Below, one piece after another: positions 2,597-62,735 of a stretch of DNA of 64,000 bases. Position 1 is the stretch's first letter. The number at the start of each line of letters is the position of its first letter. The position numbers and the translations under genes were made by a program. Source of the DNA: Saprospira grandis str. Lewin (lineage in GTDB: Bacteria > Bacteroidota > Bacteroidia > Chitinophagales > Saprospiraceae); assembly GCF_000250635.1 (NCBI RefSeq), contig NC_016940.1:1160995-1224994 (forward strand), read 5' to 3'. The notes beneath the pieces are model-generated. The model saw only the letters and a program-made list of their open reading frames with translations, was not told where the DNA came from and ran no database searches.

Positions 2597-2711
2597 TGCC
2601 CTACAACAATATAAAGCACTTAGCAAAAAACAAATACATTAACCGTATCAATACTTGCAATTACAAACCTAAGTCATTAACTTAGCGATACATAACAAAA
2701 ACACAAAAATT

Positions 2712-3473: not shown

Positions 3474-3475
3474 TT

Positions 3476-3640
3476 GTTTTTTTCTTTTTTGGGGCTGCCC
3501 CGCCCTGCGGGCGGGTCGGGCTGTATCGCAGCTCGCAGCTCTGCTCGGCCCTGCAGGCTTTTTCGCTTCGCTTCAAAAGCCTTGGGTCTGCCGCCTTGCG
3601 GCGGCCCTGCTTTCCATCCCTCAGCCGGGGCAGTTTTCTT
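3476..3640. repeat. REP-like mosaic element, archetypal full copy (forward)
   Basis: T-run, GGGGCTGCCCCGCCCTGCGGGCGGGTCGGGCTG, GCTCGCAGCTCTGCTCGGCCCTGC core, GGCG..CGCC hairpin, TTCCATCCCTCAGCC module. Confidence 0.85.
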
Positions 3641-3679
3641 CGCTCCAATGGCAATTTCTAGCCACAATCTCCCCCTTCT

Positions 3680-5540: not shown

Positions 5541-5719
5541 AAAAAAATGAAAATTTCTACCGTTAAAAAAATCTAATGAATTCGGGAAATCGTATTAAAT
5601 AGATTTTTTTTTAAAAGATGGCTCTAAAGGGTAACAAAACCTTAAGAATTGTCATCTATATAATAAGTCTTAGGTAAATGCTTATCTAAGACCTCTTATC
5701 TCACCTAAAGCTTAATTTA

Positions 5720-6769
5720 ATGTCTAGATTATTATTTTTACCCTTACTCTTATTCTTCTTCTACCAACCGGCAGAAGCTCAACTAATGAACCGCCTTAAG
5801 AAAAAGGCAAAAGCAGGTGTTGCTGGCGTGAAGGCCCAAACAGAACAAGCTGTAGACATCAATAGTCTGCCAGCAGAAGAGCGTCGAGCACTGTATGAAA
5901 AAAAAGGCTATCAAGTTGTTGTTGGCTATCTACACTGGGCCACTGGGCAAGGTGAGCTGGCAGAAGAAGTGACTGGTGCAGCGAAAGCTATGCAACACCC
6001 TAGCGCAACTTATGCTGAATTAACATCTCCCTTAGAGGATCGTAAACTCCTTCAATACTCAGAACTTCCTGAATCTAGTGATTGGGTGGAAGCTGGAGAT
6101 AAACTTTATGCTATTGTTGGACTAAGTGGTATCATTAAAAATCCTGAAACGAACAAGGCTTTCCGTTATCAAGAACTAGATAAGGCCACTGTTCGCAAAC
6201 TTCTTTTTGAAGACGAAAGCTGGATTCTTTACCTAAACCGTCCTGGTGCAGAAGTTATGGTTATTGCTGCTGGAGCAGCAACTGTAACCAAAGCTCAAAA
6301 TCTTTTTGAGGCAGAAAGTTCTTTAGCCAAAGCTAAAGCCGTTGAAGCTAAAATCAATATCCGCTTAGAAAAAGAGAAAGCCAAAGAACTAGAAGAGCTC
6401 AATGCTGCGGCTGCCAAAGTACAAGTGCCTAAAAAAGGCGCTATGGATAAAAATAGCGACCTCCGTGCTTTGTCTAAAAAATACTTGACTGAGCTTTGTG
6501 AAAAAGACGGCACTCCCCTACTCTATTTTCACCTAGAGTCTAATGATTGGACCCCCTACATGAACCAATTGACCTCTAAGCCTTTTTACCGCTGGTGTAA
6601 GGGTGCTTTTGTTCAGAAGAATAAAGACGGAAGTTGCATGCTTCATGGCTATACGCTCAAGCAGCGTTATGTGGGTGGAAAATACCATACAGAAATTGAG
6701 TTTGGTGGAGTGATCCAGGGCCAAGTGCCTTATGGTAGCTACATCAGCTGCGATAATATTCCGAAATAA
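5720..6769 (+). CDS. hypothetical secreted protein
   Basis: signal peptide ..FFFYQPAEAQ; Lys/Glu/Ala-rich coiled region; no domain recognised. Confidence 0.5.
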   Translation: MSRLLFLPLLLFFFYQPAEAQLMNRLKKKAKAGVAGVKAQTEQAVDINSLPAEERRALYEKKGYQVVVGYLHWATGQGELAEEVTGAAKAMQHPSATYAELTSPLEDRKLLQYSELPESSDWVEAGDKLYAIVGLSGIIKNPETNKAFRYQELDKATVRKLLFEDESWILYLNRPGAEVMVIAAGAATVTKAQNLFEAESSLAKAKAVEAKINIRLEKEKAKELEELNAAAAKVQVPKKGAMDKNSDLRALSKKYLTELCEKDGTPLLYFHLESNDWTPYMNQLTSKPFYRWCKGAFVQKNKDGSCMLHGYTLKQRYVGGKYHTEIEFGGVIQGQVPYGSYISCDNIPK

Positions 6770-8310: not shown

Positions 8311-8682
8311 TATTTCTCGCTAATTTAAAGTTGTTCAAAAAATATGCAAAGGGCCAAATTTGTCTTTTGGGCGGCCTTCGCTTCATAAATGCAGCAAAGA
8401 TATAAATTTCTGCAAAGGAAGTTAAGCCCGCCCCTATTTTGCTAGAAAAAAAGCTGAGGAACAAGCGCCAAGCAATCAAAAATCAAAGGCCCGAGCAAAA
8501 CAAGCCTCGGCCCAGTTTATTTCTTCCTGCTCAAAATGACTAAATTCTTTTCCTTACAGCCGCAGGCCCCCGAAAAACAGTTATCCTTGATGAATATTGC
8601 ATAGAAAACAGCTTGTTTTATGAAAATTGCATACGATTTAAGGCTTAAGTTGTAAAACACTATCATTCGTTTCTTTTTTTGG

Positions 8683-8995
8683 GGCTGCCCCGGCCATAGG
8701 CCGGGTCGGGCTGTGTCGTGGCTCGCAGGTCTGCTCGGCCCTGCGGCGCAAAGCGCCTTGGTCTGCGGCTGCGCCGCCCCACTTTCCATCCCTCAGCCGA
8801 TGCAGGCCAGGGCCTGCATAAAAGCGGCAGGCTATCGCCTATTTAATGTAAAGCGGGCCAGGGCCCGCTTTGAATTGGACCAATTTGGCCCAGGCAGCCC
8901 GAGGGATTCCGCAAGGAATCCCGCAGAGGGGTGGCTGGGCGGGTCATCAGTACGGATGAGGAGCGAAGCGAGGAATACCGCTTTGGGCCAACCAA
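8683..8995. repeat. composite REP-like element: forward core copy plus palindromic module B (GGATTCC..GGAATCCC)
   Basis: ggggctgcccc..gctcgcaggtctgctcggccctgc..ttccatccctcagcc then gggattccgcaaggaatcccgcagaggggtggctgggcggg..gatgaggagcgaagcgaggaataccgc. Confidence 0.8.
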
Positions 8996-9027
8996 AAGCA
9001 GAAAAGACTGTTTAAGGAAAAAACGCC

Positions 9028-16989: not shown

Positions 16990-17570
16990 GACCTTTGTTT
17001 TTTCTTTTTTCCTTTTGGGGCCCGCGGCCCAGGCAGGCCTAGGGCCTGCCTGGGCCGCCGCTATGCTGCGCGGCTCGCTGTTACTTGCTTCGCTGCGTCG
17101 GCTCCCGTTGGTCGGGTCGCTCGGCCCATCGCTTTTTCGCTTTGCTCAAAAGCTCGGTCTGGCCTGCGGCCACCGCTGCGCAGCGCTGGGCCGCTCGGCC
17201 TCTTAGCTTGGCCAGTTCTTTCTGCTGCGGCCCCCTTGGCCCCTCCTTTTAAATGGTATTCGTCGCTGCGCTCCTCATCCGTCTATATGTCCCCGCCCAC
17301 CCACCCCTCTACGGGATTCCCTAAGGAATCCCTCGGGATGGCTGGACCAACTCCTACACCTCCTCGCCCACTAAATAGGCGGCTTCGCCGCCTCTGGCCC
17401 AAAGGGACAGAACGGCCTAGTGATGCGGCGGGGTGGCCCAAAGGGCCAGACCCAGGCGGCGCAGCCGCCGCAGGGCCGAGCAGACCTGCGAGCCCCAAAG
17501 CGTAACGGCGCAAGGCGAAGCCGCAGCGCAGGCCCCAACTCCTCCCCTCAGAAAAATAGCGGAAATAAAA
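16990..17570. repeat. ~580-bp composite of REP-like modules: two core copies in opposite orientation flanking a reverse module B
   Basis: ggggcccgcggccc.. at left, module B reverse at 17256-17332, gcagggccgagcagacctgcgagcccc core reverse at ~17480; track ORFs 16954..17505 and 17283..17663 are repeat artefacts. Confidence 0.8.
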
Positions 17571-18721: not shown

Positions 18722-21052
18722 TTACTCAATTCTGGCTACCGTATTGACCGCATCCAAGTTCTTAATCGACATAATAATCTGCTTGAGCTGGTCCTTATTT
18801 TGCACCATCAAACTAATCCGTCCTTCAAAATGACCCTCTAGGCCCTCCATAGAAAATGAACGCATATTGACGCCCAACTCATTGGTAATGATGTTAGACA
18901 ACTGCTGCACCACCCCCATATCATCCATGCCCGTAATCAAGAGATCGGCCACAAAAGAGGTTTCGCCAGACTCTACCCATTCCGCCTTTTTTATCCGATA
19001 GCCATAAGTGGCCTGCATATGCTCGGCATTGGGGCAGGTGGTCCGATGAATTTTTAAGCCATGCTTAGAGGTCACATAAGCAAAAATATCATCGCCCATA
19101 ACGGGATTGCAGCAGGTGGCCAAGGAGTAGGTATAATTGCTGGCATCTTCGCCATCTACCATCAATTTGGGCTTCTTAAACTGCTTGCGACTGGCCAAGG
19201 GACGTAATTTGGGGCCCTTGGGCTTTTCTATCTGTGCAATTTCCTCCTTAGGCGTATCGGCCAACTCTGGGAACAGCTTTCCCTGCTCCTGCCGCAAGAG
19301 CTTAATCTCATTTAAGTTGTACTGCCCCTGATAAATCCCATAATAAAGAGCGGGGCGATTCTCTAGGCCATAGTATTTGACCAGTACGTCTATATTCTCA
19401 TCGGCATCTAGCTTGAGGGTTTTTAGTTTGCGCTCTAGGGTTTCTTTGCCCAGGGCGCCCAACTTCATACGCTCCTCACGGAGCGCCTGACGGATCTTAT
19501 GTCGAGCCCGTCCAGTCTCCACCATCTTCAACCAACCCTTTGAGGGCTTTTGGTTGGGACTGGTCACCACCCTCAATTGGTCGCCATTTCGGAGGCGATA
19601 GCTAAGAGGAACAATCTTTTCGGCCACCTTGACCGCCTTACAATGATAGCCCACCTCCGAGTGAATATCAAAGGCAAAATCTAGGGCCGTGGCTCCTTTA
19701 GGGAAAAAGCGGAGGTCTCCCTTGGGCGTAAATACATAAACCTCCTCGGCAAAAAGGTTTGACTTAAAGCTGTTTAGAAACTCAATGGCATTGGTTTCTG
19801 GATTCTCTAACATTTCTCGGGCTTTGGTCAGCCAGCGTTCAAAGGTACTGCTTTGGCTGGATTTAACGCCCTTGTATTTCCAGTGTGCCGCAAAGCCCAT
19901 TTCGGCAATTTCATCCATGCGCTCCGAGCGAATTTGCACCTCGACAAAGCGGCCCTTGGGCCCCATAACTGTCGTATGCAAAGATTCATAGCCATTGGTC
20001 TTTGGCATAGATACCCAATCTTTTAGGCGTTCGGGCACGGGGGTATAGTAATCGGTAATGATAGAATAGACATTCCAACAGGCGGCCTTTTCTCTTTCAA
20101 TGGGTAAATCTAAAACAATCCGAATAGCAAAGAAATCATATATCTCCTCAAAGGCCAGTTGCTTCTTCTTGAGTTTGTTGTTAATGGAAGAAATGGATTT
20201 GGCTCGGCCAAAGATGCGGGCCTTATAGCCTGCAGCTTCTACAGCCTTGCGCACGGGAGCAATAAAATCTTCAATATAAGCCTCTCGCTCGTCCTTCGTT
20301 TCTTGTAATTTCTTGACAATGTCTTGGTACTCTGTAGGCTCGATGATCTTCATGACCAAATCTTCCATTTCCGTCTTTATGGAGTAGAAACCCAGACGGT
20401 GGGCCAAAGGCGCATAGATATAAGAGGTTTCTGAAGCAATCTTTAGCTGCTTATGATGAGGCATAGAGCCTAGGGTCCGCATATTATGTAGGCGGTCCGC
20501 CATCTTAATGAGCACCACCCGCACATCCTTGGCAATGGTCAAGAGGATCTTTTTAAAGTTTTCGGCCTGTGGGCTACTCATCTTATCGCCCTGTACATTA
20601 TTGGCATTGGCAATACCCGAAAACTTAGTCAGGCCATCTACAATAGAACTTACCTTTTGGCCAAACAATAACCGAATTTGGGCTAAATTAACCTCCGTAT
20701 CTTCTACCACATCATGCATAAGGGCCGCTTTGATAGAGCGAGGGGCCAAGCCTAACTCATCGGCACAAATACGGGCTACCTCTATGGGATGCAGAATATA
20801 AGGCTCTCCTGACTTTCGTCTTTGGCCCGCATGCGCCCGAAAAGCTAAAGTAAAAGCCAGACGCATTTCTCTTTCTTCCTCTGGCGGATAATCCATCCGC
20901 AGGCTGCCTAACAAATGCTCAAAGGCCGCATAGACTTCTTTTTCTTCATCGGCATTGAGATCGGTGGTTGGGTCTGGCAAATTTAAAGGCGCCAGCTTTT
21001 CTTCTATATAGTCTACCATAGTCTTATTCTTTTTATACAGGGCCCTACTCAT
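18722..21052 (-). CDS. relA: bifunctional (p)ppGpp synthetase/hydrolase RelA/SpoT-family
   Basis: 776 aa; HD hydrolase motif HDVVEDT, RelA/SpoT synthetase region, C-terminal TGS and ACT regions. Confidence 0.9.
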   Translation of the reverse strand: MSRALYKKNKTMVDYIEEKLAPLNLPDPTTDLNADEEKEVYAAFEHLLGSLRMDYPPEEEREMRLAFTLAFRAHAGQRRKSGEPYILHPIEVARICADELGLAPRSIKAALMHDVVEDTEVNLAQIRLLFGQKVSSIVDGLTKFSGIANANNVQGDKMSSPQAENFKKILLTIAKDVRVVLIKMADRLHNMRTLGSMPHHKQLKIASETSYIYAPLAHRLGFYSIKTEMEDLVMKIIEPTEYQDIVKKLQETKDEREAYIEDFIAPVRKAVEAAGYKARIFGRAKSISSINNKLKKKQLAFEEIYDFFAIRIVLDLPIEREKAACWNVYSIITDYYTPVPERLKDWVSMPKTNGYESLHTTVMGPKGRFVEVQIRSERMDEIAEMGFAAHWKYKGVKSSQSSTFERWLTKAREMLENPETNAIEFLNSFKSNLFAEEVYVFTPKGDLRFFPKGATALDFAFDIHSEVGYHCKAVKVAEKIVPLSYRLRNGDQLRVVTSPNQKPSKGWLKMVETGRARHKIRQALREERMKLGALGKETLERKLKTLKLDADENIDVLVKYYGLENRPALYYGIYQGQYNLNEIKLLRQEQGKLFPELADTPKEEIAQIEKPKGPKLRPLASRKQFKKPKLMVDGEDASNYTYSLATCCNPVMGDDIFAYVTSKHGLKIHRTTCPNAEHMQATYGYRIKKAEWVESGETSFVADLLITGMDDMGVVQQLSNIITNELGVNMRSFSMEGLEGHFEGRISLMVQNKDQLKQIIMSIKNLDAVNTVARIE

Positions 21053-21368
21053 CCAAAAATTTGATCCTCGGCCACCGCTTGCTCTTTTGCTTTCTTCTTT
21101 TAATAGAAAATCATTCTATTACAGAAAAAAATGCCCCTGCCCTAGCCCATAGGCTAAGCAGAGCACAACAACAAAAAAGAAATTTAGAGAGAAGCCCTTG
21201 CTTTTCCAAACTTTTTTAAGCTATTGTCTGCATCACTATATATTATATGTATAAAAGAAATAGGAAGCACTGCTTTTTTGCCCCTAAGTCAATTGATGAA
21301 TAAAGCAGAAAGCTCTTTTTATCAGCGGACTAGCATCCCTTAGGCTAAAAACAAGGCGCCAGAGGCCT

Positions 21369-21665
21369 CTGGATTGTTACATTTAACCGTGGGGATTCCC
21401 CACAGCCATCTGGATTGTTACATTTAACCGTGGGGATTCCCCACAGCCATCTGGATCGTTACATTTAACCGTGGGGATTCCCCACAGCCATCTGGATCGT
21501 TACATTTAACCGTGGGGATTCCCCACAGCCATCTGGATTGTTACATTTAACCGTGGGGATTCCCCACAGCCATCTGGATTGTTACATTTAGCCGTGGGGA
21601 TTCCCCACAGCCATCTGGATCGTTACATTTAGCCGTGGGGATTCCCCACAGCCATCTGGATCCTT
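21369..21665. repeat. tandem array, 41-bp unit x ~7.2, each unit containing palindrome GTGGGGA-T-TCCCCAC
   Basis: ctggattgttacatttaaccgtggggattccccacagccat repeated head-to-tail with point variants (gattg/gatcg, aacc/agcc) in AT-rich intergenic region. Confidence 0.95.
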
Positions 21666-21841: not shown

Positions 21842-22825
21842 ATGGTAGAAACTACTGGCTGGATCAAGACGGAAAACTTCGTCTATACGACCACCAAAGA
21901 AAACAAAAAGAAGATGTACCTTTTAGCGAAGGATCATGTTCACAAATTGACAGAAAAAGCGAGCAGCGATCCTGTCATTCAAGACATCTTGAACTTTATT
22001 CTTCCTGCCTATGAGGACTTTCTTCTTCAGTATCGTAAGAATACGGTAGAGAGAAGAGACTATCAGCAGAAAACAGCAACATTTAAGTCCCTGATTGCTC
22101 AATTGTCTGGCGTTGAAATTCGCCGCTGGGATGTTGAAATTCAGATGACCTATGATATTGTTACCAATGATTACCGTCTATTTCTTCCCTACGGACGAGA
22201 GCCCTTCCAAAAAGGGACCTATGATATGCGCATTGAGGCAGTCATGACCTTGGGAGATTTGTTGAGCGCCGATCCGCAGCTTCAGGGCTTGGGGGCTCGT
22301 GTACTTGCCTTTGGCCAGCAGCTAGATGATCTTCGTGGCCAGCAGCAGGGAGTAGAAGGTAATAACGATGACAATGTAGATGATTTGGAAGCCAAGCGTG
22401 AAGAGCTCGCTATTATACTTTATGGTGCTTTTGCTCGCCTATTGGCCCATTATTATCGTACGCCCAAGCGGGTAGATAACTTTTATGAGCTCAAGTATTT
22501 CCGCCGCAGCCGAAATAGCAGCCCAGAGCAAGAAGAAGAAAACGACAACTTTAGCAACTTTGAAGTGGCCCTAAGTCCTGGCAGCAGCCAGCAGCAACTA
22601 GAGGGCCTACTTATTGGTGGCGAGCGCTTGCGTTTGCAGCATATTAGCGGAGAGCCCGTCTTGTACTACTTCTTGGTTAATTCTAGCGATAGCCCAGGCC
22701 AACAGTATGAGTTGCAGCCCAACCAAAGCGTTGAAGTGATTGTCCCGCTTGGCCATCGTCTTATTGTGCTAGAGAATCCTAGCCGCCAAGACAGCCTTGT
22801 CGAGATTGAGCTACTGCCTAGCTAG
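21842..22825 (+). CDS. hypothetical protein (327 aa) in AT-rich island
   Basis: long ORF, no domain recognised; followed by hairpin terminator. Confidence 0.5.
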   Translation: MVETTGWIKTENFVYTTTKENKKKMYLLAKDHVHKLTEKASSDPVIQDILNFILPAYEDFLLQYRKNTVERRDYQQKTATFKSLIAQLSGVEIRRWDVEIQMTYDIVTNDYRLFLPYGREPFQKGTYDMRIEAVMTLGDLLSADPQLQGLGARVLAFGQQLDDLRGQQQGVEGNNDDNVDDLEAKREELAIILYGAFARLLAHYYRTPKRVDNFYELKYFRRSRNSSPEQEEENDNFSNFEVALSPGSSQQQLEGLLIGGERLRLQHISGEPVLYYFLVNSSDSPGQQYELQPNQSVEVIVPLGHRLIVLENPSRQDSLVEIELLPS

Positions 22826-24776: not shown

Positions 24777-24811
24777 AGATGATTGATTTATTAGATATGT
24801 TCTTTTTCTGA

Positions 24812-25040
24812 TGATTTGGGGCTGCCCCGCCCTGCGGGCGGGTCGGGCTGTCTCGCAGCTCGCTGTTCGCTCGGCCCTGCGCGGGCTGCGCCCGCTGGGT
24901 CTGGCCTTCGGCCACTGCTGCCCATCCCTCAGCCTCTGCGGCTAAAGCCGCAGCCAAGCGGCATAGCGCTTTGCGCTATTGGCTAAGATGGCGGGCTGGG
25001 GCCCGCCATATCGGCGGCTTCGCCGCCTCTTTGGACCAAA
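24812..25040. repeat. REP-like mosaic element (forward) with extra 3' hairpin modules
   Basis: ttggggctgccccgccctgcgggcgggtcgggctgtctcgcagctcgctgttcgctcggccctgc..cccatccctcagcc. Confidence 0.85.
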
Positions 25041-25957: not shown

Positions 25958-26112
25958 TGTGCTGCGTCTAGAGGCGGGCGCAGCCCGCCGGCCTAGCGAT
26001 GGTAGGCAGTGCGGCGCAGCCGCAGACCCAGGCGCTGAAAGCGCCGCAGGGCCGAGCGAATAGCGAGCTGCCGAACGTAGCGCCGACGAGCGAAGCGAGG
26101 CGGAGGCCCCAA
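25958..26112. repeat. REP-like mosaic element (reverse)
   Basis: gcagggccgagcgaatagcgagctgccgaacgtagcgccg..gaggcggaggcccc. Confidence 0.75.
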
Positions 26113-26120
26113 ACAGAAGG

Positions 26121-31776: not shown

Positions 31777-32871
31777 TTAAAGGGTTCCTCTTAGCTCTTG
31801 CTCCCGCTCGATGGCTTCAAACAAGGCCTTGAAGTTTCCTTTGCCAAAAGATTGGGCGCCACAACGCTGAATGATTTCATAGAAAACGGTGGGGCGATCC
31901 TGTACCGGCTTGGTAAAAATCTGTAGCAAATAGCCATCTTCATCTCGGTCGATCAAAATATTGAGTTTTTTCAACTCTTCCAAATCCTCTTCAATTTTGC
32001 CTACCCGATCCAAGACCGTATCATAGTAGTTGTCGGGCACATAAAGGAAGTCTACCCCATTGGCTCTCAACTGACTAACGGTCTCGATGATATTATCGGT
32101 AGCCACGGCAATATGTTGTACACCGCCGCCCTGATAAAAGTCAATATACTCCTCAATTTGCGACTTCTTACGGCCTTCGGCGGGTTCGTTAATGGGAAAC
32201 TTCACATAGCCGTTTCCATTAGATACCACCTTGCTCATCAGGGCTGTATATTCGGTAGAAATATCATTATCATCAAAGGTAATCAGGAGGTTAAAGCCCA
32301 TCACTTTTTGGTAGTATTCTACCCATTTATTCATCTCGCCCCAACCGACATTGCCCACGCAATGGTCAATATATTTTAGGCCAACTGGCTGGATTTTCAT
32401 AGGGCTTTCTTTGGCCATATAGCCCGGCATAAATGCGCCCTTATAATTTTTGCGCTCGACAAAAGTGTGCACGGTTTCGCCATAAGTATAAATACCGGCC
32501 AGCTTCACTTCTCCATCTTCATCGCTCAAGGTTTTAGGCTCAAAAGCCGATTTTGCCCCTCTTTCTAGGGCCACTTTATAGGCATTTTCTGCATCATCTA
32601 CCCAAAGGGCCAAGGTTTTTACCCCATCGCCATGCTTTTTCACATGCTCCGCCACGGGATGATCGGGCACTAGAGCCGAAGTTAAAAGCAAGCGGATTTT
32701 GCCCTGCTCCAATACATAGGTACAAAGCTCCTTATCGCCAGTCTCCAAACCTCTATAAGCTACCAACTTATAGCCAAAAGCCGTTTGATAATAGTGGGCC
32801 GATTGCTTGGCATTTCCCACATAAAACTCCACATGATCGGTCCCCAATAGGGGCATTGCATCTTGGTTCAT
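31777..32871 (-). CDS. hppD: 4-hydroxyphenylpyruvate dioxygenase
   Basis: 364 aa; two VOC domains; GGVQHIAVATDNI and FYEIIQR motifs. Confidence 0.85.
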   Translation of the reverse strand: MNQDAMPLLGTDHVEFYVGNAKQSAHYYQTAFGYKLVAYRGLETGDKELCTYVLEQGKIRLLLTSALVPDHPVAEHVKKHGDGVKTLALWVDDAENAYKVALERGAKSAFEPKTLSDEDGEVKLAGIYTYGETVHTFVERKNYKGAFMPGYMAKESPMKIQPVGLKYIDHCVGNVGWGEMNKWVEYYQKVMGFNLLITFDDNDISTEYTALMSKVVSNGNGYVKFPINEPAEGRKKSQIEEYIDFYQGGGVQHIAVATDNIIETVSQLRANGVDFLYVPDNYYDTVLDRVGKIEEDLEELKKLNILIDRDEDGYLLQIFTKPVQDRPTVFYEIIQRCGAQSFGKGNFKALFEAIEREQELRGTL

Positions 32872-32944
32872 GTTACTGTTTTTTTTAACGTATTTAGATG
32901 ATCTTGCTGTTCAGCGCCTAAACTTAAGGAATTTTTAGCGCTTT

Positions 32945-33185
32945 TTACTGTTTTTTGGGGCTGCCCCTTCCGCCGGGTTAAAACCCAGCGCAAAGCGGCA
33001 TCGCTTTGCGAGCTTATACAAAATGAGGGTTAAAACCCTCATGAATTATCGGCCGGGTCGGGCTGTGTCGTGGCTCGCAGGTCTGCTCGGCCCTGCGGGG
33101 CTTTCGCTTCGCTTCAGCCCCTGGGTCTGCGGCTTCGCCGCACCACTTTCCATCCCTCAGCCTGCGGCCCTTCGGGCCTGTAGGA
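32945..33185. repeat. REP-like mosaic element (forward) with ~80-bp internal insertion
   Basis: ttggggctgcccc..[insert gggttaaaaccc..gagggttaaaaccctc]..cgggtcgggctgtgtcgtggctcgcaggtctgctcggccctgc..ttccatccctcagcc. Confidence 0.8.
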
Positions 33186-33186
33186 C

Positions 33187-34842
33187 CTAAAAATCTTGCC
33201 CTCGCTCTAGCATATTCCAACGCAAGCCTAGGCGGCCCCAAAGCGCCTGCGGGCTTTCTATTAGGCCCGTTATCTTTTCTTGGCGGAAAGATAGGCCCAG
33301 GTCTACAAATAAATTGTGGCGCAGCTGATAACTGCCCAATAGGTCCAGATACAATAAATGAGTGGCCAGCCCCTGCCCTATTTGGTTGCCATACTCCTGT
33401 TCTCTTGTAATATAAGAAAGGTGGATATTGCTGCCCCAATTGCTGCCGCTGCTATCCTGCCCATAAAAGGCATAGGTACATTGGGCCCGAAGCTGTAGTT
33501 TGGGCATTGGCTGATAGCGAATAATGGCCAAAAACTCTCTAAAGTTGGCCCCTAGCGGATGGGCCAAAGGCTGATTATAATGCGTATAACTAGCCGAGCT
33601 ATCTCTAAAGGTATAGGTATAGGGACGAACCGTATTAAACTCCAATTGCAGATCTAGATGATTGATATTGGCTACATTTCGGTATTTGAGGCCCAATTGC
33701 AGGCCTTGTTTGTTGGCCCACCAGCCGCCATTGGCCGCAGAGGGCGAACGGAAGACCTCTGAAAACACAAACTCATCAATGACCACTTGTCCATAAAAGG
33801 CAAAGCGCCGCAGAAAATCCCAGCGGAAATTTAGGCCCAGCATAGCATTATCTGGGCTGCCTAGGCCTTGCTCTACTGCCCGATAAAAAATAAGGGGATT
33901 GAGATATTGCAATTCAAAACCTTGCTCTCGACCGAAAACGATGGCCTCAAACAAGCCAATTTGTAGGTTTTTGCTCAGTTTGAGGTCCAGATAATGCGCT
34001 GCCAAATACTTTTTGGGATAGAGCCCATTGGCTACGGGTGCATGATCCTGCGTCAATTCCGCAAAGATATTGCGGTAATGAAAGCGCCAAATGCGAGTAT
34101 CTAATTGCAGATAAAAATAATTGTTTGAGAAATCGGACAAGAGCAAAGAGCGGTGCCCATCGCCAATAAAATGGCGGCCATGGCCCAAGCGGGCCGAGAT
34201 ATAGGGCATAATCTGAAAGCCAATATGTCCTTGGGCCAATAGATAATCTACCCCATCTTCTGGGGCATCGGTCAGTTGGCTATCATAGACCTTATAAAAG
34301 CCCGCTCTGGGCACCGCCCCAAACTGGCTAATTCGGTTTTGGATATGGCGGGGAAAAGCTGCCTGATTTTCGGTAAGGGTTGTCGAGAAAAACAAACGTT
34401 TAGCAATATCCCCCTCTAGGCGCAAGCCTCTGCGGTTGAGGAAAAGCAGGTTTTGGCTTCCATCTTCTAGGCGCTCCCCTCCTGCTTGCAGATGCAATAA
34501 AGGATTGACCGAAAAATAGAAATCGCCAGTTTGCAAGGCATATAGATTGGCCTTTTGTCTGTAAAAATGCGACCAAAAACTTTTGGGCGCGGGGGCCAGG
34601 CTATCCCAAAGGGCATTATCGGTTAAAAGATAGCTAGAGTCTGGACTTTGGCTGGCCAGCTTGCGCAGATCGCTGCGCAAAAAGGGCCGCAGGCTCGTAT
34701 GCGCGCCTTCTAATTGTGGAGCAAGGGTCTGTGCTCGGTCCAAATAATCATCAGCAGGGCCCTGCAGGGGGCTATATTGGCTAGTTTGGGCCCAAACACT
34801 GGCCGAAAGCAGCAAGGGCAGAAAATAAATGAGCGTTTTCAT
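33187..34842 (-). CDS. hypothetical outer-membrane beta-barrel protein
   Basis: 551 aa; signal peptide MKTLIYFLPLLLSASVWAQ; Tyr/Gly/Asn-rich alternating pattern. Confidence 0.55.
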   Translation of the reverse strand: MKTLIYFLPLLLSASVWAQTSQYSPLQGPADDYLDRAQTLAPQLEGAHTSLRPFLRSDLRKLASQSPDSSYLLTDNALWDSLAPAPKSFWSHFYRQKANLYALQTGDFYFSVNPLLHLQAGGERLEDGSQNLLFLNRRGLRLEGDIAKRLFFSTTLTENQAAFPRHIQNRISQFGAVPRAGFYKVYDSQLTDAPEDGVDYLLAQGHIGFQIMPYISARLGHGRHFIGDGHRSLLLSDFSNNYFYLQLDTRIWRFHYRNIFAELTQDHAPVANGLYPKKYLAAHYLDLKLSKNLQIGLFEAIVFGREQGFELQYLNPLIFYRAVEQGLGSPDNAMLGLNFRWDFLRRFAFYGQVVIDEFVFSEVFRSPSAANGGWWANKQGLQLGLKYRNVANINHLDLQLEFNTVRPYTYTFRDSSASYTHYNQPLAHPLGANFREFLAIIRYQPMPKLQLRAQCTYAFYGQDSSGSNWGSNIHLSYITREQEYGNQIGQGLATHLLYLDLLGSYQLRHNLFVDLGLSFRQEKITGLIESPQALWGRLGLRWNMLERGQDF

Positions 34843-34851
34843 GAAAACGAA

Positions 34852-35475
34852 TTAGAGCGTAAAGATAGCCCGCAGGCTAAACATATAGGGATTGAAATAA
34901 GTATCCTTTCGGATATTCATGGGGGCTCTTTGCCAGCGAACATTGAGGCCCCAATTTTTGGTAAAATAAAAGGTCAGGTCGGCCACAATCATGACATAAT
35001 CCTTGCGAAAATTATCAATTACTGCGGGATCATCCTGCCCATTTACTTCTACGGTGGCATTGAGGATACGATTATAGGAAAGCCCCGCCCCAAACTGCAT
35101 GCGGTGGTAGCTATCCTTGCCATCTTCTGTGGAAATTTCCCAATCTTTGAGTAAGATAAGGACGGGCACCTCTATATTATTAAGGTGTAGATAAAAATTG
35201 CGAGGCGCTCCCTGAAGAGAGGGAGACTGGCTGCCTTGCTGAGAAAAAAGAATCTCTACCCCTAGGTCCCAAATGGGCGCCAAACGGGCCGTTCCTCTGG
35301 CGCCAAGATTTAGGCCGGGCTTGGTATAGCCTGCGGCATCATCGCCATCTATTTGGGCCATATTTATTCCAGCAATAATACTAGCCGAAAAGCGATTCTG
35401 ATAATCTGAAGATTGGGCCTGAAGCTGTAGTGCTCCAATCCATAAGGCAAGAAAGCATAAGATATTAAGTCGCAT
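34852..35475 (-). CDS. small outer-membrane beta-barrel (porin-like) protein
   Basis: 207 aa; signal peptide; amphipathic strands; C-terminal aromatic ..RAIFTL. Confidence 0.55.
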   Translation of the reverse strand: MRLNILCFLALWIGALQLQAQSSDYQNRFSASIIAGINMAQIDGDDAAGYTKPGLNLGARGTARLAPIWDLGVEILFSQQGSQSPSLQGAPRNFYLHLNNIEVPVLILLKDWEISTEDGKDSYHRMQFGAGLSYNRILNATVEVNGQDDPAVIDNFRKDYVMIVADLTFYFTKNWGLNVRWQRAPMNIRKDTYFNPYMFSLRAIFTL

Positions 35476-35649
35476 AGTAAATATTTTAGCGTGAAAGCCT
35501 CAAAATACTGCGCTTTTAGGGGATTGGGAAGGCGGGGGCTGTTTTTTATCCCTTAAACTCTGGCTGGGACTATTTAAAATTTTGGGTCTGCCCTTTCCTG
35601 CGCCTAGGGACAAGCCCCTAGGCTAGCTTTTCAGACAGCCCTCTAAAGA

Positions 35650-35800
35650 GGGCCTTTGGATAAAGCTAGCTGCAGCCTAAAGGCCGCAGCCAATCTTGTT
35701 GGGCCATCATCTTGCTCGCCGCAGGAGCTTAAAAGCCCCTGCTTTTTTAGGGTTGAGCAAATTAGGTTTTGTTTTCAGGTCCTGCGGGTTTTAAGCTGCA
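35650..35800. repeat. second repeat family (~145 bp), copy 1, forward, abutting a REP element
   Basis: gcagcctaaaggccgcagccaatc..ggccatcat..ctcgccgcaggagcttaaaagcccctgc..ttttcaggtcctgcgggttttaagctgcag matches reverse complement of 48457-48600. Confidence 0.75.
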
Positions 35801-35821
35801 GATCTATATATACATCCTACA

Positions 35822-35960
35822 GGCCCGAAGGGCCGCAGGCCTAGCGATGTGGAGGGGTGGCCGAAGGCCAGACCGAGGAGCGGAGCGACGAAGGGCCGAG
35901 CAGACCTGCGAGCCCCGCAACGTAGCGCCGCAAGGCGAAGCCGCAGCGGAGGCCCCAAAG
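35822..35960. repeat. REP-like mosaic element (reverse)
   Basis: gaagggccgagcagacctgcgagccccgcaacgtagcgccgcaaggcgaagccgcagcggaggcccc. Confidence 0.8.
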
Positions 35961-38060: not shown

Positions 38061-38094
38061 CCGAGGGGGAGCCATTATTTTTTTGTTGATTTTT

Positions 38095-38415
38095 TTGGGG
38101 CCTCCGCAGCAAAGCTGCGGCGCTACGTTTCGGGGCTCGCAGGTCTGCTCGGCCCTGCGGCCTGACGGCCTTGGTCTGCGGCTTCGCCGCCCCCCTACAC
38201 ATCGCTAGGCCATGAACGAGCGCAGCCAGCTGCGCCCAGCAGGCGGCAAAGCCGCCGCAAAGGCGCGAAGCGCCTCGGCTGAGGGATGGATAGGGGGGCC
38301 CGCAGGGCCAGACCCAAGTTTTTTGAAGCGAAGCGAAAAAAACTGCAGGGCCGAGCAGACCTGCGAGCCCGGCACAGCCCGACCCAAGGCCGTAGGCCGC
38401 AGGGGCAGCCCCAAA
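38095..38415. repeat. inverted pair of REP-like elements
   Basis: forward partial copy 38095-38200 (gctcgcaggtctgctcggccctgc) and reverse full copy 38205-38415 (ggctgagggatgga..gcagggccgagcagacctgcgagccc..ggggcagcccc). Confidence 0.85.
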
Positions 38416-39119: not shown

Positions 39120-39253
39120 GCACTGTCCCGTCCTGAAAAACTGATACAGAATTTAAAGCAATAAAATTCTGATTAAATACGGGTGAAAAGTTATTCTGGA
39201 AGATTTTGACCTCCTTCAAAAAGGTCAAAAAATCTTACGGAAATAACTTGTTG

Positions 39254-40118
39254 TCAATTTAACAACTCTGGCTTAAGATGATCTTGGGCTAGAGTTGTTT
39301 TCTTTTTATAGCTCTTATATTCGAGCTCTTGTTGTTGGTGCATTTCAGCAGGCGGCATAAATTGACAAGACCAATGTGGCCGCGCTTGGTTGTAAATATC
39401 AATACTTTGAGCCACTATTTTCTTCATCGCATCTAGCCCTAAATGGAAAAAATCTGCAATAAACTCTTGCTTTAATATTCCATTTATTCGCTCTGCTACG
39501 GCATTTGCATAAGGGTCATAAGACTCAGTCATAGAGCAACTTATGCCTAGCTCTTTGAGTACTTGCTGATAATCATTTGAGCAGTACTGAATGCCCCGAT
39601 CAGAATGATGAATCAGCTCTTCGTTAGGATATAGACGACGCTTTGCAGCCTGTTTTAAGGCTCGAATAGAGCCAATACTGCTCAAGCTGTCAGAGACATC
39701 ATATCCCATTATTTGCTTAGAATAAGCGTCTGTGACCAAGGCTAAATACATTGGATTTTCTCTCGTTCCAATGTAAGTAATATCTGAAACCCCAGACTTG
39801 CTCTGGCCGATAAATTTTCAAATCAGCTATCTTGTTCTTATGCTTTCTGTAGTGGTGGAAGGAATTTGTCGTTGTATGATAGTTCTTTCGAGGTCGAACT
39901 AGCAGATTGTTGGCCCGCAAAATAGTAAAAAACTTATCTCGGCCTACTCGCAGAGCCTTCAACTCAGATTGAAGTAAATGGTACAATTTGCGGCCTCCTA
40001 AGCGAGGCATTTTGTTCCGTACTTCTTGAACTAAGGCAACTACTTTTTCTGCCAAACCCTGATTAGATCTATGTTTCGCCTTCGATCTATAGTACTGCTG
40101 ACGATTTATCCCGACCAA
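39254..40118 (-). pseudogene. IS3-family transposase OrfB (DDE/rve) disrupted by 1-bp frameshift
   Basis: split into 133-aa and 165-aa ORFs; cccc at ~39785 vs ccc in intact copy (47640); also one a/t substitution (M vs L). Confidence 0.8.
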
Positions 40119-40138
40119 TCGACATAAGCCACTTAAGC

Positions 40139-40561
40139 TTATTTTTTCTTCTTTTTGGAATTTATCAACTGTTCGGGTAAAGACTTTTTTCTGATTGGAA
40201 TTTCAAACTCTTCTTCCGCTATATCTATCATCATATCAAAAAACAAGGCCTTCTTATCTGCCTGATTTAGCTCCTTTTCCAAGCGACGATTTTTCTTCTC
40301 TAAAAGCTTCAATTGCTGACGCAACTCCATCAATTCTTGTTCTGGACTCTTCTTCATACTTCTTAATTTATAGCTTTTATCGTATTGGCCATGTTTCTCG
40401 ATCCATGTCCGAATTGTACTGTCTCCTTGTATCCCATACTTCCGTTGAGCCGCCCTTAATCCAATCTCGCCATTTTCTACTTCCGACACAACTTGGAGCT
40501 TAAAAGCTAAGGTATAATCTTTTTGCGTCCGCTTAACATACTGACCTTCTTTATTTTCCAT
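40139..40561 (-). CDS. IS3-family transposase OrfA (HTH)
   Basis: 140 aa, identical to 47992-48414; ends ..NSKKKKK over A-rich slippery region. Confidence 0.85.
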   Translation of the reverse strand: MENKEGQYVKRTQKDYTLAFKLQVVSEVENGEIGLRAAQRKYGIQGDSTIRTWIEKHGQYDKSYKLRSMKKSPEQELMELRQQLKLLEKKNRRLEKELNQADKKALFFDMMIDIAEEEFEIPIRKKSLPEQLINSKKKKK

Positions 40562-40693
40562 CTATCTTCTGTTTTTGTTGTATCAGTATATCAGGACAAG
40601 ACACACTGAAGTAGAAAAAGGCTAGTGATTTTTATCGCTAGCCTTTTTTTTGGGCAAAAAAAAACCTCCAAGCCAAAAGCTTGAAGGTTAAAG

Positions 40694-46824: not shown

Positions 46825-46965
46825 TTTGGGGCCTCCGCCTCGCTTCGCTCGTCGGCGCTACGTTTCAGGGCTCGCAGGTCTGCTCGGCCCTTCGCCAGCT
46901 TCGCTGGCTCGGTCTGGCCTACGGCCACCCTTGCACATCGCTAGGCCTGCGGCCCTTCGGGCCTG
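46825..46965. repeat. REP-like mosaic element (forward, partial module set)
   Basis: ggggcctccgcctcgcttcgctcgtcggcgctacgtttcagggctcgcaggtctgctcggccc..ggtctggcctacggccacc..catcgctaggcc. Confidence 0.8.
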
Positions 46966-47107
46966 CTATCCGTAGCTTGTCCCGTCCTGAAAAACTGATA
47001 CAGAATTTAAAGCAATAAAATTCTGATTAAATACGGGTGAAAAGTTATTCTGGAAGATTTTGACCTCCTTCAAAAAGGTCAAAAAATCTTACGGAAATAA
47101 CTTGTTG

Positions 47108-47971
47108 TCAATTTAACAACTCTGGCTTAAGATGATCTTGGGCTAGAGTTGTTTTCTTTTTATAGCTCTTATATTCGAGCTCTTGTTGTTGGTGCATTTC
47201 AGCAGGCGGCATAAATTGACAAGACCAATGTGGCCGCGCTTGGTTGTAAATATCAATACTTTGAGCCACTATTTTCTTCATCGCATCTAGCCCTAAATGG
47301 AAAAAATCTGCAATAAACTCTTGCTTTAATATTCCATTTATTCGCTCTGCTACGGCATTTGCATAAGGGTCATAAGACTCAGTCATAGAGCAACTTATGC
47401 CTAGCTCTTTGAGTACTTGCTGATAATCATTTGAGCAGTACTGAATGCCCCGATCAGAATGATGAATCAGCTCTTCGTTAGGATATAGACGACGCTTTGC
47501 AGCCTGTTTTAAGGCTCGAATAGAGCCAATACTGCTCAAGCTGTCAGAGACATCATATCCCATTATTTGCTTAGAATAAGCGTCTGTGACCAAGGCTAAA
47601 TACATTGGATTTTCTCTCGTTCCAATGTAAGTAATATCTGAAACCCAGACTTGCTCTGGCCGATAAATTTTCAAATCAGCTATCTTGTTCTTATGCTTTC
47701 TGTAGTGGTGGAAGGAATTTGTCGTTGTATGATAGTTCTTTCGAGGTCGAACTAGCAGATTGTTGGCCCGCAAAATAGTAAAAAACTTATCTCGGCCTAC
47801 TCGCAGAGCCTTCAACTCAGATTGAAGTAAATGGTACATTTTGCGGCCTCCTAAGCGAGGCATTTTGTTCCGTACTTCTTGAACTAAGGCAACTACTTTT
47901 TCTGCCAAACCCTGATTAGATCTATGTTTCGCCTTCGATCTATAGTACTGCTGACGATTTATCCCGACCAA
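47108..47971 (-). CDS. IS3-family transposase OrfB (rve integrase core, DDE)
   Basis: 287 aa; ..HSDRGIQYCSNDYQ..ESYDPYANAVAERINGILKQEF.. integrase core; likely expressed by -1 frameshift from OrfA. Confidence 0.9.
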   Translation of the reverse strand: MVGINRQQYYRSKAKHRSNQGLAEKVVALVQEVRNKMPRLGGRKMYHLLQSELKALRVGRDKFFTILRANNLLVRPRKNYHTTTNSFHHYRKHKNKIADLKIYRPEQVWVSDITYIGTRENPMYLALVTDAYSKQIMGYDVSDSLSSIGSIRALKQAAKRRLYPNEELIHHSDRGIQYCSNDYQQVLKELGISCSMTESYDPYANAVAERINGILKQEFIADFFHLGLDAMKKIVAQSIDIYNQARPHWSCQFMPPAEMHQQQELEYKSYKKKTTLAQDHLKPELLN

Positions 47972-47991
47972 TCGACATAAGCCACTTAAGC

Positions 47992-48414
47992 TTATTTTTT
48001 CTTCTTTTTGGAATTTATCAACTGTTCGGGTAAAGACTTTTTTCTGATTGGAATTTCAAACTCTTCTTCCGCTATATCTATCATCATATCAAAAAACAAG
48101 GCCTTCTTATCTGCCTGATTTAGCTCCTTTTCCAAGCGACGATTTTTCTTCTCTAAAAGCTTCAATTGCTGACGCAACTCCATCAATTCTTGTTCTGGAC
48201 TCTTCTTCATACTTCTTAATTTATAGCTTTTATCGTATTGGCCATGTTTCTCGATCCATGTCCGAATTGTACTGTCTCCTTGTATCCCATACTTCCGTTG
48301 AGCCGCCCTTAATCCAATCTCGCCATTTTCTACTTCCGACACAACTTGGAGCTTAAAAGCTAAGGTATAATCTTTTTGCGTCCGCTTAACATACTGACCT
48401 TCTTTATTTTCCAT
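47992..48414 (-). CDS. IS3-family transposase OrfA
   Basis: 140 aa HTH protein identical to copy A. Confidence 0.9.
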   Translation of the reverse strand: MENKEGQYVKRTQKDYTLAFKLQVVSEVENGEIGLRAAQRKYGIQGDSTIRTWIEKHGQYDKSYKLRSMKKSPEQELMELRQQLKLLEKKNRRLEKELNQADKKALFFDMMIDIAEEEFEIPIRKKSLPEQLINSKKKKK

Positions 48415-48456
48415 CTATCTTCTGTTTTTGTTGTATCAGTATATCAGGACAAGACA

Positions 48457-48600
48457 GCTGCAGCTTAAAAGCCGCAAGACCTGAAAACCGAATGCTTGCG
48501 CCCATCTCCAATAAAGCAGGGGCTTTTAAGCTCCTGCGGCGAGAAAAATGATGGCCCAAGAGATTGGCTGCGGCCTTTAGGCTGCAGGAATAGGATTTTG
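48457..48600. repeat. second repeat family (~145 bp), copy 2, reverse orientation
   Basis: reverse complement matches 35650-35800 (shared SCSLKAAANL in artefactual ORFs 35656..35844 and 48404..48607). Confidence 0.75.
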
Positions 48601-48675
48601 GCCCCAATTGTTAGGGAATTGTTAAAAATGAAAATAATGTAACAAAATCAAAAAGGGGGAAAGTTCGGTATTTTA

Positions 48676-49130
48676 CCGAACTAGTTCAGCTCCAGACCGA
48701 AGCAGTTCACCTCCAGACCGAACTAGTTTACCTCCAGACCGAAGCAGTTTACCTCCAGACCGAACTAGTTTACCTCCAGACCAAACTAGTTTACCTCCAG
48801 ACCAAACTAGTTCAGCTCCAGACCAAACTAGTTCACCTCCAGACCGAACTAGTTCAGCTCCAGACCGAACTGGTTCACCTCCAGACCGAAGCAGTTCACC
48901 GCCAGACCGAACTAGTTCACCGCCAGACCGAAGCAGTTTACCTCCAGACCGAACTGGTTCACCTCCAGACCGAAGCAGTTCACCTCCAGACCGAACTAGT
49001 TCACCTCCAGACCAAACTAGTTCAGCTCCAGACCAAACTAGTTCACCTCCAGACCAAACTAGTTCACCTCCAGACCAAACTAGTTCACCTCCAGACCAAA
49101 CTAGTTCACCTCCAGACCGAAGCAGTTCAC
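48676..49130. repeat. minisatellite: 21-bp unit x ~22 (CTCCAGACCGAACTAGTTCAC and variants)
   Basis: head-to-tail repeats with alternating GAACTAGTTC (10-bp palindrome) and GAAGCAGTT variants; track ORF 48673..49182 (SGGELVW heptads) lies on it. Confidence 0.95.
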
Positions 49131-49204
49131 GGGACTGTTCAGGATTTTGTGTATCCAGATAGGCAACAAAAAGGGCAAGCAAAAAATGTTAAACAAAAAA
49201 GCCC

Positions 49205-49300
49205 AGCCACTCCCCTAAGGGATTCCTTAGGGAATCCCGCAGAGGGGTGGGTGGGCGGGTTATATTGCGAATGAGGAGCGCAGCGACGAATACCGCTTTT
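49205..49300. repeat. isolated REP module B (GGATTCCTTAGGGAATCCC palindrome module)
   Basis: cccctaagggattccttagggaatcccgcagaggggtgggtgggcgggttatattgcgaatgaggagcgcagcgacgaataccgc; homologous to 8895-8978 and 17256-17332 (reverse). Confidence 0.8.
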
Positions 49301-50564: not shown

Positions 50565-50900
50565 ATGCGGTGGACAGGCGGCGAAGCCGCCGCAGGCTGA
50601 GGGATGGACAGCAGTGGCCGTCAGGCCAGACCCAGCCGCCGCAGGCGGCGCAGGGCCGAGCGAAGAGCGAGCTGCGAAACAGCCCGACCCGACCGCAGGG
50701 AGGGGCAGCCCCAAAATAGCAGCGAGCTGCGACAACCAGCCCCAAAGGGGCGCCAGTTCGATGACCAAGGGGAATAAACAGCCCGACCCGACCGCAGGGA
50801 GGGACAGCCCCAAAATAGCAGCGAGCTGCGACAACCAGCCCCAAAGGGGCGCCAGTTCGACAACCGAAGGGCGTAGCGGCAGCCCCAAAATAGCCGCATA
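50565..50900. repeat. REP-like element (reverse) followed by tandem duplication of a ~95-bp module
   Basis: ggctgagggatggacag..gcagggccgagcgaagagcgagctgcg then aacagcccgacccgaccgcagggaggg(g/a)cagccccaaaatagcagcgagctgcgacaaccagccccaaaggggcgccagttcga twice (50681-50775, 50776-50870). Confidence 0.85.
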
Positions 50901-58189: not shown

Positions 58190-58345
58190 TCTTTTTGGGG
58201 CTGCCCCGCCCTGCGGGCGGGTCGGGCTGTCCGCAGCTCGCTGCTCGCTCGGCCCTGCGGCGGCTTTGCCGCCTAGGTCTGCCGCCTTCGGCGGCCCTGC
58301 TCTCATCCCTCAGCCGAGGCGCTTCGCGCCTGCAAAACGCAGTTG
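58190..58345. repeat. REP-like mosaic element (forward)
   Basis: ttggggctgccccgccctgcgggcgggtcgggctgtccgcagctcgctgctcgctcggccctgc..ctcatccctcagcc. Confidence 0.85.
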
Positions 58346-60192: not shown

Positions 60193-60348
60193 AAATGGCC
60201 CAGCGCTGCGGAGCGGGTGGCCGCAGGCCAGACCAAAGGCAGGCTACGCCTGCCTGCAGGGCCGAGCAGACCTGCGAGCCCCGCAGCATAGCGGCGGCCG
60301 ACCTAGGCGCAGCCTAGCCGGCCGCGGGCCCCAAAAAAAACGAAATCG
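60193..60348. repeat. REP-like mosaic element (reverse)
   Basis: gcagggccgagcagacctgcgagccccgcagcatagcggcggccgacctaggcgcagcctagccggccgcgggcccc. Confidence 0.8.
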
Positions 60349-62516: not shown

Positions 62517-62555
62517 ATAGGCTAGTTCTTGATTCAGGACTAGCCTATTTTTTTG
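62517..62555 (+). terminator. rho-independent terminator
   Basis: ataggctagt-12nt loop-actagcctat stem plus TTTTTTT, merging into REP T-run. Confidence 0.75.
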
Positions 62556-62735
62556 GGGCCTGCCGCCTTTGGCGGCCGGGCCCTTGCGGGGCTCGCAGGT
62601 ATGCTCGGCCCTGCGCCGCTTTCAGCGGCTGGGTCTGGCCTACGGCCACCCCTTCAGGCCCCTAGGCCGACGGGCCTTCGGCCCTCTATTTGGCCTTTGC
62701 TTGCGGCGGCTTCGCCGCCTGCAAAACCCAGAAAA
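62552..62735. repeat. REP-like mosaic element (forward, variant)
   Basis: ttttggggcctgccgcc..ggggctcgcaggtatgctcggccctgcgccgctttcagcggctgggtctggcctacggccacc.. Confidence 0.8.

Follow-up and report, generated by a model that had tools for sequence, protein, structure and literature searches.

The window analysed in this study is a 64,000-nucleotide stretch of DNA from Saprospira grandis str. Lewin. In the window, a gap between two convergent genes, an Amidohydro_3 gene on the plus strand (stop at 46822) and an Amidohydro_1 gene on the minus strand (stop at 49323), was found to contain a tandem array of 21-bp units. The array is bordered by a short AT-rich module on its left, hereafter the leader, and by a shorter module on its right, hereafter the trailer. 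A 21-nt palindrome spans the junction between the leader and the array, and a module of three hairpins and an IS3-family element lie further to the left. The coordinates of these features, together with those of other repeats in the window, are collected in Table 1.

Table 1. Features of the array locus and other repeats in the window (L001, locus of S. grandis DSM 2844; L008 and L010, metagenomic contigs)
Feature	Position	Strand	Description and basis
Tandem array	48675..49130	.	21 bp x 21.7 copies; consensus CCGAACTAGTTCACCTCCAGA; 11 variants; Tandem Repeats Finder, pattern search against shuffles, unit table
AT-rich left module (leader)	48602..48665	plus	CCCCAATTGTTAGGGAATTGTTAAAAATGAAAATAATGTAACAAAATCAAAAAGGGGGAAAGTT; about 64 bp; six copies, alignments, composition
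Junction palindrome, 21 nt	48662..48682	.	AGTTCGGTA-TTT-TACCGAACT; pairing and centroid folds
Right module (trailer)	49131..49154	plus	GGGACTGTTCAGGATTTTGTGTAT; BLAST and alignment with L001, L008 and L010
Three-hairpin dispersed module, 130 bp	48457..48587	.	Abuts the leader; e.g. hairpin CTGCGGCCTTTAGGCTGCAG
Reverse-complement copy of the three-hairpin module	35670-35801		In the dnaJ hot spot
Spurious ORF, 169 aa, TTG start	48673..49182	minus	In the ELVRSGG frame; arises from the array and belongs to no gene
IS3-family copy B	46978..48456	minus	Has terminal inverted repeats; flanked by a 3-bp target duplication, GCT; adjacent to the element but outside it
IS3-family copy A	39124-40603		Same orientation as copy B; target duplication CAC
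Imperfect hairpin	49201-49256		26-nt arms, 81% complementary, 4-nt loop
Sequences like the imperfect hairpin	17255-17345, 8902-9001
Second minisatellite	21368-21661		7.2 copies of the 41-bp unit TCTGGATTGTTACATTTAACCGTGGGGATTCCCCACAGCCA, 98% identity; palindrome GTGGGGATTCCCCAC within the unit
G+C-rich dispersed element, examples	46825-46970, 35820-35959, 38090-38211, 25985-26113, 17396-17546, 60193-60344
G+C-rich dispersed element, further copies	62545-62693, 8674-8817, 50574-50723, 24810-24943, 58193-58333

The tandem array and its intergenic gap

Tandem Repeats Finder reported a period of 21, 21.7 copies, 90% matches and 0% indels for the array, with a score of 681. Counted in register from 48676, the array consisted of 21 full units and a truncated 22nd, which agreed with the head-to-tail minisatellite of about 22 units described in the first-pass annotation. 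When the window was searched with the unit at three mismatches or fewer, 20 matches were obtained, every one of them inside the array, and dinucleotide-preserving shuffles gave 0.00; the array was unique within the 64-kb window. The 11 distinct unit variants differed at 7 of the 21 positions (3, 6, 7, 8, 12, 14 and 16). The spacer CCAGACC was invariant across the units. The core, GAACTAGTTC, was a perfect palindrome in most of them, and its variants kept near-dyad symmetry, with the central core bases being the most variable unit positions within the window. The order of the units along the array, given by variant, was abcdcefgahijdhbkfgggg. This order contained local block duplications and ended in a homogeneous run, and since such a 3' run is the expected trace of local slippage duplication, we infer that this process acted on the array. 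An alternation of CTA-core and GCA-core units had also been proposed; it was seen in parts of the array, but the 3' part consisted of identical units.

Two further observations were made on the units. On the plus strand, CACCTCC was present in 17 of the 21 units and was read as GGAGGTG on the minus strand. CACCTCC is the anti-Shine-Dalgarno core of the 16S rRNA 3' end. The likeness is probably a coincidence, because the array of S. grandis DSM 2844 mostly carries CACCCCC where the units of the window carry CACCTCC. In addition, 14 of the 18 ACTAGT (SpeI) sites of the whole 64-kb window were located inside the array.

The array had been placed next to IS3 copy B in the first-pass annotation. 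This copy is indeed a neighbour, but it ends 218 bp from the array and has an intact 3-bp duplication of its own; it was inserted precisely at the edge of the three-hairpin module. Copy A was 99.9% identical to it. Both copies were absent from the WH(T) strain and each carried its own target duplication, which identifies them as recent and independent transpositions; copy B is a simple insertion. An array borne or generated by IS3 was rejected on the basis of the separate GCT duplication, the distance of 218 bp, and the absence of the insertion from the WH(T) locus, which still has an array. A composite transposon formed by copies A and B was likewise rejected, as their target duplications differ and the array lies outside the pair. 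On the other side of the array, an imperfect hairpin was observed just downstream of the amidohydrolase stop. Similar sequences recur at two other positions of the window (Table 1), and the hairpin may be a terminator or a further dispersed palindromic module.

The orthologous locus (L002) was examined in the complete genome of S. grandis WH(T), CP110854.1, which was retrieved by exact match of the DnaK of the window and whose strain identity is given in PMC10508125. The flanking genes of WH(T) were 96-98% identical to those of the window, and synteny around the array broke at 46832 and 49182 in the window and at 14380 and 15089 in L002. In the orthologous gap of WH(T), no 21-bp array was found; the gap instead held a 42-bp array of 9.5 copies with an unrelated unit. 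Homology of this array to the 21-bp unit was considered and rejected, as similarity at the unit level was not detectable. The 42-bp array was followed by a 45-nt sequence 89% identical to the extended form of the trailer found by the 21-bp arrays. Because the WH(T) array carries this extended trailer, an element of the same group was probably already present at the site, with subsequent turnover of its array content between strains differing by 2-4%. Exact-protein look-ups for further strains at the orthologous locus gave only WH(T) and short contigs ending before the array.

Reading frames of the array

Six-frame translation indicated that three frames were open across the whole array of the window, two on the plus strand (PPDRTSS and LQTELVH) and one on the minus strand (ELVRSGG). 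One open frame per strand had been claimed before; this held for the minus strand, but the plus strand has two. The 169-aa ORF with its TTG start was present on the minus strand as the first-pass annotation described it, and on this basis it had been proposed that the array could encode a heptapeptide-repeat protein. The open frames and the ORF itself are what this proposal has in its favour, and the following results argued against it. The start codon of the ORF, at 49182, coincided exactly with the boundary of the strain-variable segment, the point from which the window is again syntenic with WH(T), and was located in a non-conserved flank; it also lies outside the segment common to the window and DSM 2844. 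As both open plus frames lacked ATG, GTG and TTG, neither had been listed as an ORF. Five of the six frames were open in the array of DSM 2844, and the longest ORF was in another frame than that of the window (VNQFGLG).

No homologue of the array frames was detected among 5.8 billion proteins, including in a search with a chimera query of all open frames. The Pfam scan of these frames gave nothing above the curated cut-off, only sub-threshold coiled-coil or low-complexity matches, and the PADLOC scan was negative for the coding hypothesis. The exact-protein look-up found no record of the 169-aa product as a called gene. In every open frame of the array, five or six of the seven variant sites changed the amino acid (five of the seven in the minus frame), which supported the earlier statement that the array is not under purifying selection at the protein level. 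Furthermore, the array was inverted in other copies, as described below. A heptad-repeat gene would be recognised by a conserved ORF with a start, by homologues and by protein-level selection, and none of these was found for the array. These results demonstrated that the array is not a gene. A heptapeptide-repeat protein encoded on either strand is almost certainly not the explanation, and the 169-aa ORF should not be called a gene in annotation.

Copies, flanking modules and array orientation

In a scan of one genome per species, the array unit was found only in S. grandis DSM 2844 (locus L001). In a metagenome scan, five contigs (L006 to L010), all from sample Ga0193958, were found to carry the unit, the leader or the trailer. 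The syntenic genes of these contigs were about 88% identical to the window at the DNA level, and the contigs were therefore assigned to a related species. The DSM 2844 array consisted of 12.7 copies of ACCGAACTGGTTCACCCCCAG with 97% matches, compared with 21.7 copies in the window, and its core, GAACTGGTTC, was not a perfect palindrome. Its flanks resembled those of the window over about 100 bp on the left (about 92-96% identity) and about 25 bp on the right (96%). Beyond these shared flanks the neighbourhoods differed, and the DSM 2844 array was at a non-syntenic locus. It was located between a PD-T4-4 defence operon (L001 3-1767; PADLOC E values of 1e-84 for the A subunit and 1.5e-4 for the B subunit) and type I hsdS/hsdM genes (2668-5855). 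With PD-T4-4 and restriction-modification genes on either side, the array lies inside a defence island. The suggestion that the array is hypervariable was borne out by the two copy numbers and by the different 42-bp array at the orthologous locus of WH(T).

Judged by their unit variants, L006 and L008 are opposite ends of one array, and L009 and L010 are those of another. Contig L007 carried two elements, so that the metagenomic relative has at least four. The first element of L007 (L007a) comprised a leader and about 2.5 array units. The second leader of L007 was 91% identical to that of the window and preceded a different array, whose 42-bp unit, ACATAACTAGCTATGTCCGGAACATAACTGGCTTACTAAAAA, was weakly similar to the 21-bp unit (13 of 21 positions, p about 0.01). 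Every multi-copy array that was found had a period of 21, 41 or 42 bp. All element copies were intergenic, and no gene type was consistently adjacent to them across the loci compared.

Contig L007 was syntenic with positions 32113-35575 of the window. A strain-variable hot spot was observed between the OMP_b-brl gene and dnaJ (window 35551-35837, L002 2648-4868, L007 3373-4336). This gap held a 287-bp mosaic of hairpin modules in the window, HEPN (RiboL-PSP/MAE_28990) and GmrSD defence genes in WH(T), and the two leader-array elements in the metagenomic contig. The reverse-complement copy of the three-hairpin module also lies in this hot spot. The last hairpin of that module at the array locus (48568-48587) was common to the window and the DSM 2844 copy.

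The leader was searched for with nhmmer using a 68-nt profile covering positions 48602-48669 of the window. Exactly six copies were detected in all the DNA examined, with E values from 4e-20 to 3e-16: one each in the window, L001, L006 and L009, and two in L007, giving five loci in all. The pairwise identity of the six copies was 75-96%, and the four leaders that bear the junction palindrome formed a subgroup with 90-96% identity. The GC content of the leader was 0.30, and that of its core, directly beside the array, was 0.21 (79% A+T). The trailer was truncated in the window; in L001, L008 and L010 it continued as ...TAGAATAAAATTTGGGCCTTTAGCT. Terminal inverted repeats of the MITE type were looked for at the ends of the element and none were found, nor were inverted repeats found bracketing the array. 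The longest inverted match between leader and trailer was 7-8 nt. Their duplex energy was no better than that of shuffles in L001 (77% at least as good) and marginal in the window, where 3% of shuffles were at least as good. In a comparison by eye, no common short duplication was visible outside the leaders and trailers. As neither terminal inverted repeats nor target-site duplications were found, no mobility mechanism is assigned to the element.

The left arm of the junction palindrome is an inverted partial unit, and its right arm is the start of the first unit. Across the four copies with the array orientation of the window, all 36 of the 36 base-pair cells were paired, and compensatory changes were found in three of the nine pairs (CG to AU, GC to AU or UA, and AU to UG). 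Depending on the measure, 6 to 16 of 500 shuffles reached the observed values. The palindrome was kept in the centroid folds, and in L001 its loop was reverse-complemented. Both copies with inverted arrays (L006/L008 and L009/L010) were without it. The upkeep of pairing could be due to selection, or to self-correction of a quasi-palindrome by template switching.

The junction hairpin also bears on whether the element is transcribed, with the array yielding a repetitive non-coding RNA or with the hairpin and the complement of the leader, which is T-rich, acting as an intrinsic terminator on the minus strand. In the window, such a terminator would be a candidate for serving the 3' end of the amidohydrolase mRNA. 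Read on the minus strand, the hairpin has a stem of 9 bp and a loop of 3 nt, after which comes TTTCCCCCTTTTTGATTTTG. Compensatory changes preserve this stem in the four copies, and in both the window and L001 the trailer lies 170-280 bp downstream of the end of a co-oriented gene. The stem contains four G-C pairs and its tail is UUUCCCCCUUUUU. However, the consensus terminator scan made no call because the U-run is broken by C5, and the hairpin is missing from both inverted-array copies. Gene orientation around the copies was inconsistent, and an inverted array would give a complementary RNA. No promoter-like site was found with a tool that does not cover the Bacteroidota promoter type. No Rfam family matched the element; a known RNA family was rejected because the matches were at chance level (mir-96 with 24 bits against a gathering score of 65, and a Phe_leader elsewhere). 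Considering both sides, we judge a transcript or a terminator to be improbable as the role of the element.

In L006/L008 and in L009/L010, the whole unit, including its asymmetric GCA core, was reverse-complemented relative to the leader and the trailer. Both orientations of the array relative to its flanks therefore occur, at different loci. The first-pass annotation had raised the possibility of a contingency or phase-variation locus, in which copy number or orientation at a single locus would reversibly alter the expression of a neighbour. The differences in copy number and orientation among copies are in line with this, as is the location of several copies 100-350 bp upstream of gene starts at other loci. 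Against it, the array of the window lies between convergent 3' ends, and gain or loss of 21-bp units, their length being divisible by 3, leaves a reading frame unchanged. The long bracketing inverted repeats that an invertase would require were not found around the array, and the two orientations were seen only between loci and never as two states of one locus. A reversible switch is therefore very unlikely, and the array should not be read as one. A classical contingency locus was rejected on the same unit length and on the position of the array outside both coding sequence and promoter spacer.

The phasing and symmetry of the units were also consistent with a set of phased sites for a dimeric DNA-binding protein, beside which the AT-rich leader would serve as an unwinding or bending region. 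The candidate models included iteron-like titration of a Rep protein, a centromere-like site, a site for a nucleoid-associated protein and a decoy for a mobile-element protein. One period of 21 bp spans two turns of the helix, and periods of 42 and 41 bp were found for the other arrays of the group. The core is a perfect palindrome in most units and near-dyad in the variants, a dyad-symmetric site would tolerate the inversion seen between copies, and the 79% A+T core of the leader lies right beside the array. In addition, the DSM 2844 copy has PD-T4-4 on one side and type I restriction-modification genes on the other, and one metagenomic copy occupies the site of the HEPN/GmrSD genes in WH(T). 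On the other hand, no rep, par or other DNA-binding gene was consistently adjacent. Matches to the DnaA box were at chance level in the window, with none near the array, and no similarity to any plasmid, phage or viral contig was detected. Within the window it was the central core bases that varied most, while the spacer was invariant, and the DSM 2844 core is an imperfect palindrome. We therefore regard a binding array as a rather unlikely role. Two related origins were rejected: a plasmid, phage or viral source, which gave no match in the respective searches, and a replication origin at the array, for which there were neither DnaA boxes nor a rep gene.

The probable repeat family and its relation to known systems

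Taken together, the array is probably the non-coding, expandable core of a modular interspersed intergenic repeat family specific to Saprospira. An element would consist of an AT-rich left module of about 64 bp, an array phased at 21 bp and a right module of about 25-45 bp. Several copies of the element exist, with modules recombined in different ways, and they occupy intergenic hot spots that vary between strains. From copy to copy and from strain to strain there are differences in the number of units, in the sequence of the array and even in its orientation, and no reading frame is conserved. That the array is one module of such a dispersed family, with conserved modules on its flanks, had escaped the first-pass annotation. 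As far as the databases show, the family is restricted to Saprospira, and it is previously undescribed; a literature search on Saprospira tandem repeats and on such arrays found nothing relevant. The copy number would change by slipped-strand mispairing or by unequal recombination between units, a mechanism that fits the stretch of identical units and the duplication of unit blocks. Elements might spread or be exchanged between loci by recombination through the dense dispersed repeats, or by some transposition mechanism. At the locus of the window, the array would have no effect on coding sequence.

Several of the observations are not readily accounted for by a satellite that is purely selfish or neutral. 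These are the leaders that remain 75-96% identical across loci and across species with about 12% difference in coding DNA, the perfect pairing of the palindrome through three compensatory changes, and the restriction of the periods to 21, 41 and 42 bp. The conserved leaders, the compensation in the palindrome, the array inversion and the 21/42-bp phasing leave room for a DNA-binding or RNA role. It is a minor possibility that the leader-linked, 21-bp-phased arrays of Saprospira are not junk but functional array loci of a new class. In such a locus, the AT-rich leader and a selected junction hairpin would nucleate the binding of a dedicated protein or the production of a repetitive RNA. The array could diversify into 21- and 42-bp types behind one leader, invert, and be swapped between hot spots that collect defence genes. 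Its role might be that of a decoy or titration array against DNA-binding proteins of mobile elements, or of a chromosome-structuring site.

Read as a modular repeat family, the Saprospira element is by analogy closest in behaviour to the BOX elements of pneumococci. BOX elements are composite repeats of the form boxA-boxBn-boxC in which the copy number of boxB varies, and large BOX elements create spurious ORFs (PMC3049150). Both are small non-coding intergenic elements with conserved end modules around a tandem central module, and in both the central module is repeated a different number of times at different loci and in different strains (21.7 and 12.7 copies in Saprospira). Both are multi-copy and clustered with other small repeats, and in both the large arrays give spurious ORFs. 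However, the host phylum differs and no sequence relationship is expected. The Saprospira unit is 21 bp long, whereas the boxB unit is about 45 bp. The leader and trailer show neither terminal inverted repeats nor mutual pairing, arrays of different types can follow the same leader, the orientation of the array between its flanks can be reversed, and a junction palindrome is present. Among the features that define BOX- and MITE-like classes, terminal modules around a variable tandem core were found, as was a dispersed, multi-copy and intergenic distribution; terminal inverted repeats were not.

REP/BIME and Neisseria mosaic elements are intergenic mosaics of short palindromic modules that are strain-variable and lie at rearrangement hot spots, and the DNA around the Saprospira array is likewise full of hairpin modules of this kind. 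BIMEs, however, alternate inverted REPs with linkers at roughly 70-80 bp, whereas the Saprospira array consists of up to 22 direct 21-bp units placed head to tail. The features not described for the BOX, BIME and MITE families include the lack of terminal inverted repeats and the use of one leader for different array types. They further include the inversion of the array between fixed flanks, the covarying 21-nt palindrome and the strict 21/42-bp phasing.

Iterons of theta plasmids and phage origins are 17-22-bp repeats spaced at 21-22 bp beside an A+T-rich region. The Saprospira array resembles them in its direct repeats at two helical turns, its partial dyad symmetry and its adjacent 79% A+T segment, so that the phase of the repeats and the A+T-rich neighbour of an iteron array were both found. 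In contrast to iterons, it lacks an initiator (rep) gene, DnaA boxes, a replicon context and similarity to plasmids or phages, and it has 12-22 units at several chromosomal loci per genome. The array also resembles VNTR and MIRU loci, in that it is an intergenic tandem repeat whose copy number differs between strains, which makes it a useful typing marker. MIRUs lie within operons at fixed loci, whereas the Saprospira array is part of a dispersed modular element and was replaced outright at the orthologous locus of another strain. A conserved AT-rich leader beside a strain-variable array, with some copies in defence islands, is also reminiscent of CRISPR. The Saprospira units, however, abut head to tail with a period of 21 bp and 0% indels and leave no unique spacers, so that a CRISPR array was rejected; cas genes were not seen adjacent to the element in any locus that was read.

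Taken alone, the array is non-coding VNTR DNA of an ordinary kind. Unusual properties of the family, which can be tested, are the conservation of the leader, the swapping and inversion of arrays and the covarying palindrome. The family adds an example from Bacteroidota of a modular interspersed repeat with a VNTR core. Its elements mark intergenic hot spots whose content differs between close strains, with different arrays, an IS element or defence genes present; for this reason, the elements may be useful for strain typing and for locating recombination hot spots. The discovery of a binding protein or a transcript would turn the family into a tractable new system.

Other repeats were observed in the window. 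The genes on either side of the second minisatellite, which has a 41-bp unit, are divergent (18722-21052, minus strand; 21842-22825, plus strand), and the repeat has neither the leader nor the trailer of the 21-bp family. Its unit has GTTACATT in common with the complement of the leader, an overlap that may be due to chance. A G+C-rich dispersed element of about 120-150 bp was found in well over ten copies in the 64 kb. Every related locus also carries it, and it takes up many of the intergenic gaps and yields spurious ORFs rich in Ala, Arg, Gly and Pro. A 99-bp repeat of 1.9 copies at 50677-50860 overlaps one of its copies (50574-50723) and may be a partial tandem duplication of that copy.
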